From an uncultured Brachyspira sp. (GTDB lineage: Bacteria > Spirochaetota > JAAYUW01), in the NCBI GenBank assembly GCA_964581895.1, contig CAZOPR010000008.1:15903-79902 (forward strand): a stretch of DNA of 64,000 nt. Direction: 5' to 3'. Below are positions 7,657 through 49,952 of this stretch, piece by piece (positions within the stretch are counted from its first letter, which is position 1; the number at the start of each line of letters is the position of its first letter). The position numbers were made by a program, and so were the translations under genes. The notes beneath the pieces were generated by a model. That model was not told where the DNA came from. It ran no database searches and saw only the letters and a list, made by a program, of their open reading frames with translations.

Positions 7657-7729
7657 GCCCTCATAGCTCATACGGTAGAGCGTTTCCATGGTAAGGAAAA
7701 GGTACTCGGTTCGATTCCGAGTGAGGGCT
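7657..7729 (+). tRNA. tRNA-Thr (anticodon GGT); CCA not encoded
   Basis: Acceptor GCCCTCA/TGAGGGC; D stem GCTC/GAGC; anticodon stem TTTCC/GGAAA with loop ATGGTAA; T arm CTCGG-TTCGATT-CCGAG. Confidence 0.97.
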
Positions 7730-7789
7730 GTGAATAAAAAATAAGTCGAAATTTCAAAAAAGATAAATTAGTTTAATAAAGGTGAATGT

Positions 7790-7945
7790 ATGAGAGAATT
7801 AATAGCTTTTAAGTGTGATGTATGCGGAAACAAAAATTATACTGCTGATAAGAACAAAAAAAATACTCCAGATAAGTTATCTTTTAAGAAATATTGTAGA
7901 TTTTGTCATAAACATACTGTTCATAGTGAAACAAAAATTAAATAA
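7790..7945 (+). CDS. rpmG: 50S ribosomal protein L33 (Zn-binding form), 51 aa, not in the ORF track
   Basis: Hand translation MRELIAFKCDVCGNKNY…KKYCRFCHKHTVHSETKIK*. Confidence 0.96.
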   Translation: MRELIAFKCDVCGNKNYTADKNKKNTPDKLSFKKYCRFCHKHTVHSETKIK

Positions 7946-7953
7946 ATAATTAT

Positions 7954-8027
7954 AGGTCAGTAGCTCCAATTGGTAGAGCGGCGGTCTCCAAAACCGCATG
8001 TTGGGGGTTCGAATCCCTCCTGGCCTG
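7954..8027 (+). tRNA. tRNA-Trp (anticodon CCA); CCA end not encoded
   Basis: AGGTCAG/CTGGCCT acceptor; GCGGT-CTCCAAA-ACCGC anticodon arm; GGTTCGAATCC T loop; canonical position before secE. Confidence 0.97.
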
Positions 8028-8048
8028 TTTTTGAACTGTGGAGGCAGA

Positions 8049-43321: not shown

Positions 43322-44269
43322 ATGGTAGAAAGTAAAAAAGAGAAAGAAGATGAAATTGAATTTTTTCAAATTGTTATTCCAGAAAACACATTATCGACAA
43401 GAGTAGATAAATTTTTATCTGAATATAGTGGATATTCGAGAAGTAGAATATCAAATTATACTTATAAGCTTTTAATTAATAATAAAGAAGAAAAACTCTC
43501 TAAAATAATAAAGCCAAAAGATCTTGTTCAAATTTATTTGAAAATACCTGATGACTATACAGAAATTATTCCCCAAAAATATGACTTAGATATAATTTAT
43601 GAAGATGATTTATTAATTGTTATAAAAAAACCTTTTAATGTCCCTACTCACCCATCCTTTGGGCATTCATCTGATACAATCCTAAATTATATTAAATACT
43701 ATCTATTGAATAAAAATGAAAATCCTTTACCTGATTGTGGTATGGTCCATAGATTAGATAAAGATACAGAAGGACTTTTAATATTTGCAAAAACAATTGA
43801 AAGTCAGGCATATTTGAAATTTCTTTTTATGAATAGACAAATTGAAAAAAATTATTTTGCAATAATAAAAGGAATCATTGAACCGAAGTTTGCTGAATTT
43901 AACGATAAACTTAAACGAGATCCAAACGATAGACTAAAATATAAGGTTTGTTTAAGTGGAAAAGAAGCGATTTTATCTTATAGTCGTATCGGCGTTTCAT
44001 CAGATTATAGTGCTTTAGACATTAATCTTAAAACTGGAAGGACTCATCAAATAAGAGTTCAATTTTCATATAGAGGACATTTTGTTATTGGTGATCCAAT
44101 ATATGGGAAAAAGCAGAATAAAATTTATGAAGAATATGGTATGCTTTTATTATCTAAAAGAATAAGATTTGTTCATCCTAAGGATAAAAAATTTTTAGAA
44201 TTTGAAATTGATCTACCTCAAAGATTTAAAAAATTTATAAATGATTATAAAATAATTTTAGAAGGTTAA
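43322..44269 (+). CDS. RluA/RluD-family pseudouridine synthase with S4 domain
   Basis: RVDKFL S4 domain, VHRLDKDTEG catalytic Asp, TGRTHQIRV; lspA neighbour. Confidence 0.95.
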   Translation: MVESKKEKEDEIEFFQIVIPENTLSTRVDKFLSEYSGYSRSRISNYTYKLLINNKEEKLSKIIKPKDLVQIYLKIPDDYTEIIPQKYDLDIIYEDDLLIVIKKPFNVPTHPSFGHSSDTILNYIKYYLLNKNENPLPDCGMVHRLDKDTEGLLIFAKTIESQAYLKFLFMNRQIEKNYFAIIKGIIEPKFAEFNDKLKRDPNDRLKYKVCLSGKEAILSYSRIGVSSDYSALDINLKTGRTHQIRVQFSYRGHFVIGDPIYGKKQNKIYEEYGMLLLSKRIRFVHPKDKKFLEFEIDLPQRFKKFINDYKIILEG

Positions 44270-44275
44270 AACAGT

Positions 44276-45349
44276 ATGAGAATGAATATAGGTTTTACTG
44301 GTATTTCTGGAATGCTTGGTAAGAATTTTTTAGACTATTACTTAAAAAATAATGATTTAAGAGAAAAATATAAAATTATTGGTTTATCGAGGAATATTTC
44401 AAAAGATTTGATAAAAAAATATAAAGATAATTCCGACGATATAGTTTTCAGAAATGTAAACTATTTTGATAAAAATAACTTAAAGAATTCACTTGAATCT
44501 ATTGATATTTTGATCCATGCTGCTGGAGTTACAAAAGGTAATTATTATGAAATATTTAAAAAAGGAAATATCGAAGTTACTGAAAATCTTATAAAAGTAA
44601 TTGAAGATGAAAAACTGCCCATAAAAAATTTCATCTTTATTTCTTCTCAATCAGTTCTAGGTCCATCTGATATAGATAATAAAAAAAGTATAGATAAAAA
44701 AACAAATATAGATAAAAAAGCGAAAGAGATTTATTTTGATGAAGAAAATAGTTACAATCCTATCTCAAGTTATGGAAAAAGTAAAGTAGAAGCAGAGATA
44801 AAGATCAAAAATTCAAGTATAAACTGGGTTATTGTAAGGTTTCCTACAATTTTTGGAAAATATGAGATGGACTCTTTAATTTTGTTTAAGTTCGCAAATA
44901 AAAGGATTGTAATAGATACATCCTGGGAAAATTTTACATTATCATATATTTTAGCCGAAGATGGGGTAAAATTGTTATTTTATTTAATAGATAAGATAGA
45001 AAACAGTTTTGAGAAAGTAAATAAAAAAGTTTACCACTTTTGCTATGATAAACCTATTAAAATTAGAGATTTTATGAATGAAATAATAGGGTTTTCAAAT
45101 AAAAAAGCATTTTTTAAAATTTTGGCACCAAAATTCTTGTTTAAAATAACTGCTTTATTTTTTACTTTAGTTTCAATATTAAACAAAAAAGCAATAATAA
45201 TAAATAAAGAAAAGGTCAGTGAATTTTTGCATTCAAAATGGTTTATGGCAAATGATAAAACTAAGCAAATATTGTCTTTAAATAAAATCGAAAGAGAGGC
45301 AAGTTTACAAGAAATATATCAGTGGTATAAAAAGGAAGGATTAATCTGA
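44276..45349 (+). CDS. Extended SDR / NAD-dependent epimerase-dehydratase family oxidoreductase
   Basis: TGISGMLG, HAAG, FISS, YGKSK. Confidence 0.92.
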   Translation: MRMNIGFTGISGMLGKNFLDYYLKNNDLREKYKIIGLSRNISKDLIKKYKDNSDDIVFRNVNYFDKNNLKNSLESIDILIHAAGVTKGNYYEIFKKGNIEVTENLIKVIEDEKLPIKNFIFISSQSVLGPSDIDNKKSIDKKTNIDKKAKEIYFDEENSYNPISSYGKSKVEAEIKIKNSSINWVIVRFPTIFGKYEMDSLILFKFANKRIVIDTSWENFTLSYILAEDGVKLLFYLIDKIENSFEKVNKKVYHFCYDKPIKIRDFMNEIIGFSNKKAFFKILAPKFLFKITALFFTLVSILNKKAIIINKEKVSEFLHSKWFMANDKTKQILSLNKIEREASLQEIYQWYKKEGLI

Positions 45350-45350
45350 T

Positions 45351-46343
45351 ATGGATAAAAAATCATTGTCACTATATCCAATTGATCTTGTAATAATAAT
45401 CTTAAACCTGATTTTTGCTCTGTTTAGTTTTTTAAATCTTGGTAAACTTTATATTAAAGTTGGTAGATTTAGTTTTGATAGGGAATTTTTAGTTGGCTTT
45501 TTCTTTTTGTTTGTAAATCTGTTTGTATTATTTTGGATAAAGGTTTCAAATCCTTCAAAAAATAAAATTGTGCAATTCTTCAGACTTTTTTATGGGCAAG
45601 CCTTTTATATTATATATTTTCCTGAATGTATTACTCTTTCGCAGCTTTTTTATAATGGTAAATCTTTCGATTCAATTTTTGCATATTTAGATTTCATAAT
45701 ATTTCACTATCAACCAGCTGTAGAATTTAGCAAAGCATTTATAACAAATAGATATATTAATGAGTTATTCTTTTTTTCTTATTTTGCCTATTATTTACTT
45801 ATGACTGCTGGATGGTGGATACTCTATTTTAGAAAAAAAAAGAAATTAGCTCATTATTGTTTTTTTGTAACAACATTGAGTTTTGGGTTTTTATATATAT
45901 GGTATACTTTTTTCCCTGTAAAAGGGCCTAAGTTTTATATAGAATCATTACATAATGTCTGGTATTCAAATTTCCAGGGATTTTATTTCACAAACCTTAT
46001 GAAGAGAATATTCAATTCAGCAAATTTAGGAGGCGCTGCCTTCCCCTCATCTCATGTTGCGATTTCACTTATTGCACTTTTCTTAAATAGAACATATAAC
46101 AAGAATCTGATGCCAATAATTTTTCCTCTAACATTGACACTTATGCTTTCAACAGTTTATTTGTATGCTCATTATTTTGTAGATGTCATCGGAGGAATAT
46201 TTGCCGCAATAATGCTTTATACATATGTACCTCTTCTTCAAAATTTATTCTTAAAATTAGCAAAAAATTTTAGTAAAATACTAATAGAAAAATTTAATTT
46301 TAAACAAATTAACTCCATTGAAGAAGACCTTTCTGTTGAATAG
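45351..46343 (+). CDS. Polytopic PAP2-superfamily protein, IPC-synthase (AUR1/PAP2_3)-like
   Basis: SYFAYY, FPVKGP, AAFPSSHV, STVY..AHYFVD; about 8 TM segments. Confidence 0.8.
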   Translation: MDKKSLSLYPIDLVIIILNLIFALFSFLNLGKLYIKVGRFSFDREFLVGFFFLFVNLFVLFWIKVSNPSKNKIVQFFRLFYGQAFYIIYFPECITLSQLFYNGKSFDSIFAYLDFIIFHYQPAVEFSKAFITNRYINELFFFSYFAYYLLMTAGWWILYFRKKKKLAHYCFFVTTLSFGFLYIWYTFFPVKGPKFYIESLHNVWYSNFQGFYFTNLMKRIFNSANLGGAAFPSSHVAISLIALFLNRTYNKNLMPIIFPLTLTLMLSTVYLYAHYFVDVIGGIFAAIMLYTYVPLLQNLFLKLAKNFSKILIEKFNFKQINSIEEDLSVE

Positions 46344-46583
46344 TATCTATTATCCAGTGTGGATCAAACTTAAAATTTAGCTTATATTTCATAAAATGAA
46401 ACTTAACATTTTTAATTTATTCAAGTTTTTAAAGTATTTTCTTTTAGTAAAAAATATTTTTATTCTTTCAAATAAAGTAAATTTAATTTTTGTATTAAAT
46501 AATTATAAAAATAAATCGAAAAATTAAATATATCAATTCTATAATTAATTATAATAATTTAATAAAATAAATTATAAATATTA

Positions 46584-46612
46584 TTGACAAATAAATTAAA
46601 ATATGTTATATA
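46584..46612 (+). promoter_or_regulatory. Sigma70 promoter of the DUF2089 operon
   Basis: TTGACA-17 nt-TATATA with extended TG, behind a ~230-bp very AT-rich tract. Confidence 0.65.
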
Positions 46613-46643
46613 TTAATTGAAGTTCGAAATTGATGGAGGTTTT

Positions 46644-47018
46644 ATGAAAAAAATGATAGGTAGATGTCCTATATGTGGGGAGCCTCTAACTGTTACATCT
46701 TTATTTTGCAAAGAATGCAATCTTACTATCTCAAGTGAATTTGAACTTGATGGATTTTTTAAGTTAACAAATGAGCAACTACTTTTTGTTAAAACTTTTA
46801 TAAGAAATAGAGGTAATATAAAGGAAGTAGAAAAAGAATTAGGAATATCCTATCCTACCGTACGAAATAAGCTTGATGAGATAATTGAAGCACTTGGTTA
46901 TAAAATAGAAGGTAAAGACGATTTTCAAAACAAGAGAAAGGAGATTTTAGCAAAGCTTGAAAAAGGCGAGATTACATCTGAACAAGCGATAGAGCTTTTA
47001 AAAGATATTGAGTATTAA
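46644..47018 (+). CDS. DUF2089-family protein (Zn ribbon, HTH, SHOCT-like tail)
   Basis: CPICG…CKEC; FIRNRGNIKEVEKELGISYPTVRNKLD; GGAGG before ATG 46644. Confidence 0.9.
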   Translation: MKKMIGRCPICGEPLTVTSLFCKECNLTISSEFELDGFFKLTNEQLLFVKTFIRNRGNIKEVEKELGISYPTVRNKLDEIIEALGYKIEGKDDFQNKRKEILAKLEKGEITSEQAIELLKDIEY

Positions 47019-47028
47019 GGGGATTATT

Positions 47029-48009
47029 ATGGAAATAAAAAAAATAAATGGCTCAGATATTACCTCTTTTTCATTTCAGTTATCTTCAGCCGACCTTATT
47101 ATTGAGCAGTCTAATTCAAATACAATTGAAATAGAAACAGATGCGATTTTAGATCAAGATTATGAAATAATTGAAAAGACAAATATGATAGAACTAATAG
47201 AAAAAAGAAGAAATTTTTTAAACTTTTCTTTTTTTAATAGCTCAAAATATTTTAAGATAATAATTCCAGAAAGAATTTCTCTTTTTATTTCAATAGCTTC
47301 TGGAGATTTAAGTATCTTAAACAAAGTAAGTGAAGAAGATAATAAAAATTACTTTAAGACAAAGGCAATAGATGTAAAACTTACTTCTGGAGATTTATCT
47401 GCTGAAAATTTATCTACTGCAATATTTATCTTTTCCTCTACTTCTTCTGACTTATCTATAAAAAATTCAAAGTTAGGGAAAACAAAAATAAAAGGTATAT
47501 CTTCTGATTTATATCTTAATAATTGTATGATTGATGAAATTGAAGCTAAAACAATTTCGGGAGATATCACATTAAAATTATTAAGTTTCAATAAGATTGA
47601 AGCGGATTTGAAGTCTGGAGATATTAGTATAATCTGTCCAAAAACTAAAATAAATGGTTCATTTGATACTCTTTCTGGTGATATTGAGTTAAATGGAATT
47701 GAAATAGATAAAAGCATTGCTTCTCCGTACTTATACTTAAAAACATTATCGGGAGATATTTCTGTCAATGGTAAGTACGAAGTATCCCAAACTCCAGTCC
47801 CTTCGCAGGTGAATGAACCAATAAAGTCAGCTTTTGAAGAATCTACCAAGAAAGATGAAAGAGAAAAGTTTATTCAACTTTTATTTGATGGTAAGATCTC
47901 TGAAAAAGAAGCTGCGGAGCTTTTAAAAGGTTTTGGATTTACCGAAGAAGAAATCGATTCAATATTTGAAGAGTATCTTTTTAGAAAAATTAACAAGGGT
48001 GATAAATAA
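47029..48009 (+). CDS. DUF4097 beta-strand-repeat protein (YvlB/LiaX-like) with C-terminal SHOCT-like helices; no signal peptide
   Basis: Recurrent S(G/S)D(I/L) motifs about every 19 aa; GKISEKEAAELL. Confidence 0.85.
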   Translation: MEIKKINGSDITSFSFQLSSADLIIEQSNSNTIEIETDAILDQDYEIIEKTNMIELIEKRRNFLNFSFFNSSKYFKIIIPERISLFISIASGDLSILNKVSEEDNKNYFKTKAIDVKLTSGDLSAENLSTAIFIFSSTSSDLSIKNSKLGKTKIKGISSDLYLNNCMIDEIEAKTISGDITLKLLSFNKIEADLKSGDISIICPKTKINGSFDTLSGDIELNGIEIDKSIASPYLYLKTLSGDISVNGKYEVSQTPVPSQVNEPIKSAFEESTKKDEREKFIQLLFDGKISEKEAAELLKGFGFTEEEIDSIFEEYLFRKINKGDK

Positions 48010-48020
48010 AGGGAGGTATT

Positions 48021-48536
48021 ATGAGTGATTCAATTTTTTTTGAACTAGAATCTGAAAAGAAAAAAATATTAAAAATGGTTGAAGAAAAAAAGATAACTGC
48101 GGAAGAAGCAGATAGATTGATCTCTATTTTAGAAGAATCTGTCTTGAAAGAAGAAGCGAAAGAAAAATTAAAAGAAGAAATGAGAGAAGCAAAAGATGAA
48201 GATAAAAGTTCAAATCAATTAGGCTTAAAAAGAGAAAAGATACCTAATGTAAAAGGTAAAATAGTGGTTCATGTTTTTGAAAATGGCGTAAAAAAAGTCA
48301 ATGTTGTTTTACCTATAGCACTTGCAAAGCTTGCCGATAAACTGCCGATTCAAAGTAACATTTCTGGTCAATTTGATGGTCAGAATCAGATTTCGATAAA
48401 AGATTTATTTAAGACAGCTAAAGAAAATGGATTAAATATAGAGCAAGGGATGTACATTCTTGTAAAAGATGATGAAGTTCATATTTATGATGCGGATGGA
48501 CTAGAATTTGTCAATGTTACAGAAATTAAAAAATAA
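48021..48536 (+). CDS. SHOCT-like-domain protein (DUF2089-associated)
   Basis: EKKKILKMVEEKKITAEEADRLI; IVVHVFENGVKKVNVVLPI; GGAGG RBS. Confidence 0.8.
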   Translation: MSDSIFFELESEKKKILKMVEEKKITAEEADRLISILEESVLKEEAKEKLKEEMREAKDEDKSSNQLGLKREKIPNVKGKIVVHVFENGVKKVNVVLPIALAKLADKLPIQSNISGQFDGQNQISIKDLFKTAKENGLNIEQGMYILVKDDEVHIYDADGLEFVNVTEIKK

Positions 48537-48541
48537 AAGAA

Positions 48542-48595
48542 GGGCTAACTCATATTTAAAATTAAGAATCTATTTTTCAAATAATGAGATAGCCC
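48542..48595. terminator. Long hairpin between convergent genes (probable bidirectional terminator)
   Basis: GGGCTAACTCAT…ATGAGATAGCCC arms. Confidence 0.65.

Positions 48596-48653: not shown

Positions 48654-49952
<1,299 letters not shown>

Follow-up and report, generated by a model that had tools for sequence, protein, structure and literature searches.

Proteins of the DUF2089 family, regulators that are common in bacteria, were dissected by Ravi et al. (mSystems 2024; PMC11237479) into a zinc ribbon (ZnR), a helix-turn-helix (HTH) domain and a SHOCT-like domain. The same study published the pairing of a DUF2089 gene with a following gene for a SHOCT-like domain fused to a domain named X, together with links to Toastrack proteins, and placed DUF2089 in Toastrack, LiaI-LiaF-TM and PspC contexts from which a relay from the membrane to transcription was predicted (PMC11237479). 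Here we describe a three-gene cassette of this kind in a window of 64,000 nucleotides (nt) from an uncultured Brachyspira sp. (contig CAZOPR010000008.1; all positions count from the first nucleotide of the window). Its genes, which we call A, B and C, encode a DUF2089-family regulator, a soluble DUF4097/Toastrack protein and a SHOCT-like+X protein. The cassette itself will not surprise a specialist, its kind being known from comparative genomics only. In outline the idea of the original prediction, made from the sequence alone, has a precedent, because the dissection of DUF2089, the SHOCT-like+X pairing and the Toastrack links were already in print in 2024 (PMC11237479).

Two further proposals of Ravi et al. 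bear on how such a cassette may work: (i) Toastrack provides a platform for assembly beneath the membrane; and (ii) SHOCT-like domains anchor disparate domains at the inner leaflet of the membrane (PMC11237479). They also describe a context of four genes in which membrane-anchored Toastrack proteins accompany a sigma factor and a zf-HC2 anti-sigma receptor (PMC11237479). A relative by its domains is LiaX of Enterococcus faecalis, whose helical N-terminal half binds daptomycin and the peptide LL-37 and whose Toastrack-containing beta half inhibits LiaFSR (PMC6936494). LiaX and YvlB of Bacillus subtilis are central to resistance signalling against daptomycin and antimicrobial peptides.

The locus in the window shares parts with these systems and arranges them differently. 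The DUF2089 to SHOCT-like+X dyad of Ravi et al. (Table S4) is present as A and C, with B inserted between them; we equate the X of that paper with the X domain of C from the Bacillus-group loci, not from BMQ_3693 itself. In their four-gene context the sigma factor and zf-HC2 receptor are adjacent and Toastrack is membrane-anchored, whereas neither gene is adjacent here and B is soluble. The SHOCT-like motif of their Toastrack proteins is N-terminal; that of B is C-terminal with an extra helix, and the host here is a spirochaete. Like B, LiaX and YvlB combine a SHOCT-like PF22746 helical element with a DUF4097 Toastrack domain and lack signal peptides and transmembrane (TM) segments. LiaX, however, has 533 amino acids (aa) and carries a long helical N-terminal domain ahead of its beta domain, the reverse of the order in B. 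It is surface-exposed, acts through LiaFSR and belongs to liaXYZ, which also contains PspC and holin-like genes, whereas B is partnered by an HTH protein of the DUF2089 family. In a Pfam scan that covered 44276-48536, the other large open reading frames (ORFs) of the window being listed only, no lia or psp gene was identified next to the cassette. We are nearly certain that the operon belongs to the widespread DUF2089/SHOCT-like/Toastrack neighbourhoods, whose domains relate them to one branch, that of LiaX and YvlB, of the Lia/Psp-type systems for envelope stress. What is specific to this cassette is a soluble, domain-permuted B, the spirochaete host, and adjacent genes that encode no sigma factor, no anti-sigma factor and no membrane anchor.

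The shared SHOCT-like motif and the three proteins

The central claim of the original prediction was that one SHOCT-like helical motif recurs at the C-terminus of A, the C-terminus of B and the N-terminus of C. We compared the three regions as family alignments with hhalign. The tail of A aligned to the head of C with a probability of 95% (E = 3.4e-8); the C-terminal region of B aligned to the head of C with a probability of 92% (E = 5.6e-7) and to the tail of A with one of 70% (E = 4e-5). All three alignments share the register given earlier, and the motif is thus present on all three proteins as claimed. Its placement in B needed correction: the copy does not sit at the extreme C-terminus but is followed by a conserved third helix, GFGFTEEEIDSIFEEYLF. 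Across 14 full-length B-type proteins, gathered by an exhaustive search and used as the B family alignment, the motif reads EExxKILxLLxxGKIxExxAxELLxxxGYSEEEIDxFFEE and the third helix follows the pattern G[YF]SxEEIDxFFEEYLF. The SHOCT-like tag of B may fold as a three-helix unit.

A search that used single sequences gave the same picture. Residues 256-326 of B, run with phmmer against 3523 ORFs of related loci, returned 60 non-self matches, and 54 of these landed on segments annotated independently as SHOCT-like; such segments account for no more than 1.25% of the residues searched. The Pfam family of the motif, PF22746 (labelled in UniRef as 'YvlB/LiaX N-terminal domain'), matched C above its cutoff, A below it and B itself not at all; it reached sub-threshold matches in 4 of the 14 B-type proteins. 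Narrow hidden Markov models (HMMs) of A tails and C heads barely detected the motif of B (3.7 bits), and for this reason the comparison of family profiles was needed. We note a weak GatB_Yqey match (E = 0.002) in the C-terminal region of B, which recurs in 5 of 28 C-family heads.

A, B and C all lack a hydrophobic or TM segment, the highest Kyte-Doolittle means over 19 residues being 0.99, 1.21 and 1.13 for A, B and C, and the earlier statement that they lack signal peptides and TM segments is borne out by these values. In the hairpin helices the hydrophobic moments are no more than moderate, and the net character is polar.

Protein A contains all three parts of the DUF2089 family: a CxxC...CxxC zinc ribbon, an HTH matched over the full length of its profile (positions 1-47 of PF09862), and the SHOCT-like tail. 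Among 40 homologues the four cysteines (C8, C11, C22 and C25) are invariant, the segment RGNIKEVEKELGISYPTVRNKLD is essentially so, and L105, G108 and A115 of the tail never vary. The HTH weakly resembles GerE (1fse, E = 0.008) and fits the GerE/LuxR type, with predicted binding to DNA. A is 55-60% identical across phyla, whereas C is only about 30-35% identical. We considered a transfer of A from Bacillota in view of this identity and left the idea aside, A being extremely conserved everywhere. A word-indexed search returned 2796 DUF2089 protein clusters; cluster members of A are labelled Exilispira sp. or as metagenome-assembled genomes (MAGs) of Spirochaetales, and the host is a spirochaete of Exilispira-like type.

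In B, the Toastrack match extends over profile positions 2-246 of 247 in PF13349. The predicted beta-helix carries eight S[GS]D (S-G/S-D) rungs, several of them invariant across the 14 homologues. The dedicated models of neighbouring families scored far below their cutoffs on B: LiaX (NF038025) gave 13.1 bits against 350, and LiaG (NF049997) 62.3 bits against 285. A metagenome scan with a narrower B alignment recovered close spirochaete relatives only.

Conservation of the partners and the X domain

To survey the neighbourhoods of A we used a DUF2089 alignment to scan genomes, each species being represented once, and confirmed at least 587 relatives among the first 600 candidate stretches. The survey loci are the 80 best-scoring of these relatives, almost all from Bacillota. 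Counts refer to the 74 of these loci that extend 1.5 kb or more downstream; their ORFs were called and searched with HMMs built for the survey. An X-domain protein, usually with a SHOCT-like head, is encoded downstream of A on the same strand in 67 of the 74 (91%), Bacillaceae included. A Toastrack protein occurs in 26, and both proteins occur together in 22. These counts make C a near-obligate partner of A and B an accessory: the core unit is A plus the SHOCT+X protein, and Toastrack is an add-on. A survey of co-occurrence had been proposed as a check on the original prediction, and its expectation that the genes are co-conserved held. The roles it had assigned, with Toastrack as sensor and the third protein as adaptor, turned out the wrong way round, the SHOCT+X protein being near-universal and Toastrack facultative. 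This hierarchy, in which the conserved unit is the regulator with SHOCT+X and not with Toastrack, is one thing that the survey adds to the published picture; the other is the recognition of X as a separate domain with predicted membrane-inserting paralogues.

The arrangement of the genes varies. With s for the SHOCT-like motif and T for Toastrack, the orders found are A-sX (30 loci), A-sT-sX, A-sX-sT and X-A-sT-sX; the Toastrack gene lies before or after C, its SHOCT-like motif may be at either end, and one Symbiobacterium locus has both sT and Ts forms. The A-B-C order with the B-type architecture recurs in the distant locus L103, where B is 33% identical. The same cassette with the same flanks (RluD-like protein, epimerase and PAP2 protein on one side, enolase, ABC permease and Bmp on the other) is found in a Spirochaetes lineage whose C is 53% identical, and the cassette is present in further relatives as well; in L007-L009 the B and C genes overlap by 8 nt. 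The gap between PAP2 and A measures about 826 nt in the lineage with 53% identical C (L007:1-2762) and 300 nt in the window.

Locus L104, likewise distant and with a B-type protein, has the order A-B-LiaF_TM-MFS-C. Its stretch L104:1-4611 encodes a DUF2089 protein, a Toastrack+SHOCT protein, a small LiaF-TM-like protein, an MFS transporter, a SHOCT+X protein of 107 aa and an ATPase of the type III secretion/FliI type. Through the LiaF-TM-like gene the cassette is connected with a membrane component of the Lia type. In locus L049 (JBLNEM010000222.1), labelled 'MAG: Mycobacterium leprae', a DUF2089 gene is followed by SHOCT+Toastrack and then Toastrack, a type otherwise seen in Bacillota; probably the label of this bin is wrong or the bin is contaminated.

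Outside its head, C matched no Pfam family, and a Pfam scan of 28 C-family members returned PF22746 only. AlphaFold2 modelled C with a predicted local distance difference test (pLDDT) of 65 from a shallow alignment and 71 from 114 sequences. In the latter model the SHOCT-like hairpin is confident (pLDDT about 90), and a helical or disordered linker leads to a moderately confident alpha/beta X domain, in which two strands are followed by two helices and then by three further strands. Foldseek found nothing below E = 0.05 for this fold in PDB and BFVD, and a profile search of PDB sequences gave no match. A profile search with the X domain recovered 748 relatives.

Variants of the SHOCT+X protein were seen in the survey. 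A paralogue lies directly upstream of the DUF2089 gene in 13 of the 74 loci, in Tissierellia and related Bacillota, and in it a hydrophobic, TM-like segment (19-residue Kyte-Doolittle means of 1.6-1.9) replaces the helix that follows a conserved 'IP' motif; the corresponding helix of C is amphipathic only. Judged from this segment, the upstream paralogues may carry the X domain in a membrane-inserted form, and the TM-like helix suggests a site of action at the membrane for the X domain. In several Clostridium and Bacillus-group loci, small ORFs of 75-93 aa that encode X without a SHOCT-like head directly follow the SHOCT+X gene, and in L010 and L011 SHOCT+X is present a second time, as the third gene. 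Such duplication suggests pairing between X domains.

A proposed mechanism and its rivals

The mechanism that we prefer, and to which we would give about an even chance, is an autoregulating A that assembles with C (and B) through the SHOCT-like hairpins, the X domain being the part closest to the signal. A would be a transcription factor that regulates at least the promoter of its own cassette, whose -10 element is overlapped by a candidate inverted repeat. The shared hairpins would bring A together with C, in this cassette with B as well, and this assembly would determine its activity. The assembly could consist of direct contact between hairpins, or of joint recruitment to the inner membrane leaflet or to flat Toastrack sheets of B. 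The X domain of C would be the membrane-proximal or signal-sensing part and B a scaffold or modulator. A perturbation, most likely of the cell envelope, would shift the assembly and so free or capture A. The scheme would do without phosphorylation and without a sigma factor or membrane receptor encoded in the cassette.

Several points weigh against this mechanism. DNA binding by A, autoregulation and the operator are predicted from sequence, and an interaction of A, B and C through their hairpins, with sequestration of the regulator, is likewise predicted, if plausible. Membrane association is conjecture, because the three proteins are soluble and the helix of C is amphipathic only. Envelope stress is proposed as the signal by extrapolation from domain relatives alone. 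In the literature that we searched we found no function or experiment for any DUF2089 protein, in agreement with the earlier remark that no characterised function was known for the family. The survey percentages may not hold across the family, because the loci are its best-scoring relatives and nearly all come from Bacillota. Lastly, the canonical SHOCT domain (PF09851) showed no self-oligomerisation in size-exclusion chromatography, the only reported test (Eberhardt et al. 2013; PMC3581485). PF09851 resembles the motif described here in being a short, amphipathic, two-helix terminal unit fused to many unrelated domains; the present motif belongs to the divergent 'SHOCT-like' family PF22746, to which the oligomerisation result need not transfer.

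The original prediction was stricter than our preferred mechanism: it envisaged purely cytoplasmic partner switching, with direct binding between hairpins, Toastrack as sensor, the third protein as adaptor and the regulator sequestered. The same motif on A, B and C, the absence of TM segments and the co-conservation of the cassette all agree with it. In addition, the hydrophobic core of a two-helix hairpin this short (about 25 residues) is too small for stability alone, which would make pairing of hairpins structurally attractive. Yet its supposed Toastrack sensor is dispensable, being absent from about two thirds of the DUF2089 loci in which the X protein is nearly always there, and the membrane-associated paralogues and the LiaF-TM and PspC contexts point to the membrane. 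The lack of oligomerisation by canonical SHOCT (PMC3581485) counts against it as well. We consider this version doubtful, and less likely than the mechanism that we prefer, because Toastrack is dispensable in most loci and membrane-linked variants abound. Its name should be read as analogy only. With RsbV/RsbW/SigB, SpoIIAA/AB and PspA-PspF the cassette would share only the logic of a factor held by a partner and released on a signal, which is hypothetical here; no STAS, HATPase_c anti-sigma kinase, PP2C phosphatase, PspA or AAA+ activator domain was detected in A, B or C with Pfam at E <= 0.1.

Alternatively, A may control the operon while B and C are stress effectors comparable to LiaH/LiaI or PspA, the hairpin serving on each as an independent membrane or ligand tag. 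The predicted anchoring of SHOCT-like domains at the leaflet (PMC11237479) speaks for this, as do their fusion to many unrelated globular domains (PMC11237479, PMC3581485) and the binding of daptomycin and LL-37, not of a partner protein, by the N-terminal half of LiaX (PMC6936494). Such a tag hardly explains why a strictly conserved copy (L105, G108, A115) is carried by the DNA-binding protein, or why A and SHOCT+X are adjacent in 91% of the loci if they are not coupled, and the hairpin helices, net polar and with moderate hydrophobic moments, do not favour it either. On balance we hold this explanation to be unlikely. Far less credible still is a mobile defence or toxin-antitoxin-like module. 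Although the cassette is small and self-contained with the HTH protein first, and although A gave weak, sub-threshold PADLOC matches to CARF/Csa3-type HTH regions (E = 1e-3), these matches cover generic HTH only and PADLOC returned none for B and C. Moreover, the chromosomal flanks are the same in the lineage whose C is only 53% identical, and there is no composition anomaly, integrase or repeat nearby.

A bolder form of the preferred mechanism would make the PF22746-type hairpin a heterotypic docking tag, so that a complex of A, B and C gates the zinc-ribbon/HTH regulator and the X domain is the sensor, possibly of membrane state. We put this forward tentatively, as a possibility that we rather doubt. 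If true, it would amount to signalling independent of phosphorylation and sigma factors in thousands of bacteria, with the soluble spirochaete cassette as its minimal form. The all-soluble three-gene version, or a homologue from Bacillus or Clostridium, offers a simple system in which to identify the binding targets of SHOCT-like hairpins. Docking between hairpins would be a new mode of transcription-factor control; if they only target the membrane, the published prediction would be confirmed.

Control region, flanks and genomic setting

Coordinates are collected in Table 1. The three genes are tightly spaced and co-conserved in relatives, as expected of the self-contained cassette that had been proposed, and the products of 124, 326 and 171 aa were recovered by independent gene calls on metagenome contigs. 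We conclude that A, B and C are expressed from one conserved, predicted sigma-70-type promoter. The TTGACA-17 nt-TATATA arrangement is read directly from the sequence and is conserved in relatives, which upholds the idea that the cassette has its own promoter; a consensus promoter scan missed it for the sole reason that its -10 hexamer must end in T at position 6. Across five relatives (L094, L095, L100 and L007 among them) the block ATTGAC...TGTTATATATTAATTG is the only strongly conserved part of the intergenic region, with divergent DNA on either side, and the promoter is kept even where the C protein is down to about 53% identity to that of the window.

An inverted repeat, AATTAAAATAT / ATATATTAATT, overlaps the -10 element. 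Its arms of 11 nt are complementary at 10 of 11 positions and lie 3 nt apart, and relatives conserve the right arm and part of the left. We regard it as a candidate operator only, since in DNA this rich in A and T such a repeat may arise by chance.

The DNA between the convergent C and eno genes folds into a GC-clamped hairpin that had been taken for the terminator of the cassette. The hairpin is real, and a similar one recurs in L094 and L095 (not in L100). Its + strand, however, continues AAAAG, and the U-rich tail UUCUUUUAUUUUUU belongs to the - strand, that of enolase. A simple terminator scan called no canonical terminator here, the hairpin having a 30-nt interior and no U-tract on the + strand. 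Given the strand of the U-tract, it is probably the terminator of eno, or a bidirectional one.

Table 1. Features of the cassette and its surroundings, with X-domain variants from surveyed loci (positions in the window unless a locus is named)
Feature	Position	Strand	Evidence or detail
Three-gene cassette	46644-48536	+	genes A, B and C; A/B gap 10 nt, B/C gap 11 nt
Gene A, DUF2089-family regulator, 124 aa	46644-47018	+	ATG start; GGAGG at 46635-46639
A zinc ribbon, residues 8-38	46665-46757	+	PF22747 Zn_ribbon_DUF2089, 38.9 bits (cutoff 27.6)
A GerE-like HTH, residues 41-87	46764-46904	+	PF09862 DUF2089-HTH, 92.1 bits (cutoff 33.4)
A SHOCT-like tail, residues 97-122	46932-47009	+	PF22746, 20.8 bits, under cutoff 27
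Gene B, soluble Toastrack protein, 326 aa	47029-48009	+	ORF
B DUF4097/Toastrack beta-helix, residues 12-246	47062-47766	+	PF13349, 83 bits (cutoff 22.9)
B SHOCT-like hairpin, residues 276-301	47854-47931	+	family alignment, hhalign
B conserved third helix, residues 302-320	47932-47988	+	follows the SHOCT-like hairpin
Gene C, SHOCT-like+X protein, 171 aa	48021-48536	+	ORF
C SHOCT-like head, residues 12-39	48054-48137	+	PF22746, 33.8 bits, above cutoff
C X domain, residues ~80-166	48258-48518	+	AlphaFold2 model; preceded by helical/disordered linker
Predicted sigma-70-type promoter	46584-46612	+	-35 TTGACA 46584-46589; 17-nt spacer; extended -10 TGtTATATA 46604-46612 (TG 46604-46605, TATATA 46607-46612)
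Candidate operator, inverted repeat	46594-46618		overlaps -10 element
GC-clamped hairpin between convergent C (+) and eno (-)	48542-48595		-17.2 kcal/mol, z -4.5 on + strand
eno (enolase), convergent with C	48654-49940	-	downstream flank
RluD-like pseudouridine synthase, NAD-dependent epimerase, PAP2-family membrane phosphatase	43322-46343		precede the cassette
Upstream SHOCT+X paralogues	L022:4585-4980, L032:4578-4982, L036:4480-4974, L039:4568-4981, L050:4571-4975, L053:4578-4979, L058:4560-4979 (and others)		
X-only small ORFs	L055:5781-6008, L065:5790-6041, L079:5763-6044, L081:5767-6027, L088:5846-6097		

ORF calls and the Pfam scan place a PAP2 membrane protein upstream of the cassette and enolase downstream. 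No two-component system or extracytoplasmic function sigma factor is adjacent, as had been stated. Two ORFs near or within the cassette were set aside: one of 43 aa (46396-46527), taken as a chance ORF of AT-rich DNA, and one of 166 aa on the - strand (47349-47849), which lies wholly inside gene B and is most likely a shadow ORF in such DNA, given the strong family match of B.

The G+C content of the DNA is about 26-30%, with no anomaly of composition at the cassette and no integrase or repeats near it. An Rfam search of the whole window returned two tRNAs only, and no RNA element in the 300-nt leader. These are tRNA-Thr(GGT) and tRNA-Trp(CCA), at 7657-8028, and they precede a long run of + strand ORFs (about 8200-38000) that includes proteins of 1165 and 1403 aa. 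Judged by size and order alone, the run looks like rpoB/rpoC with a ribosomal-protein cluster, which suggests that the cassette resides in the core chromosome.

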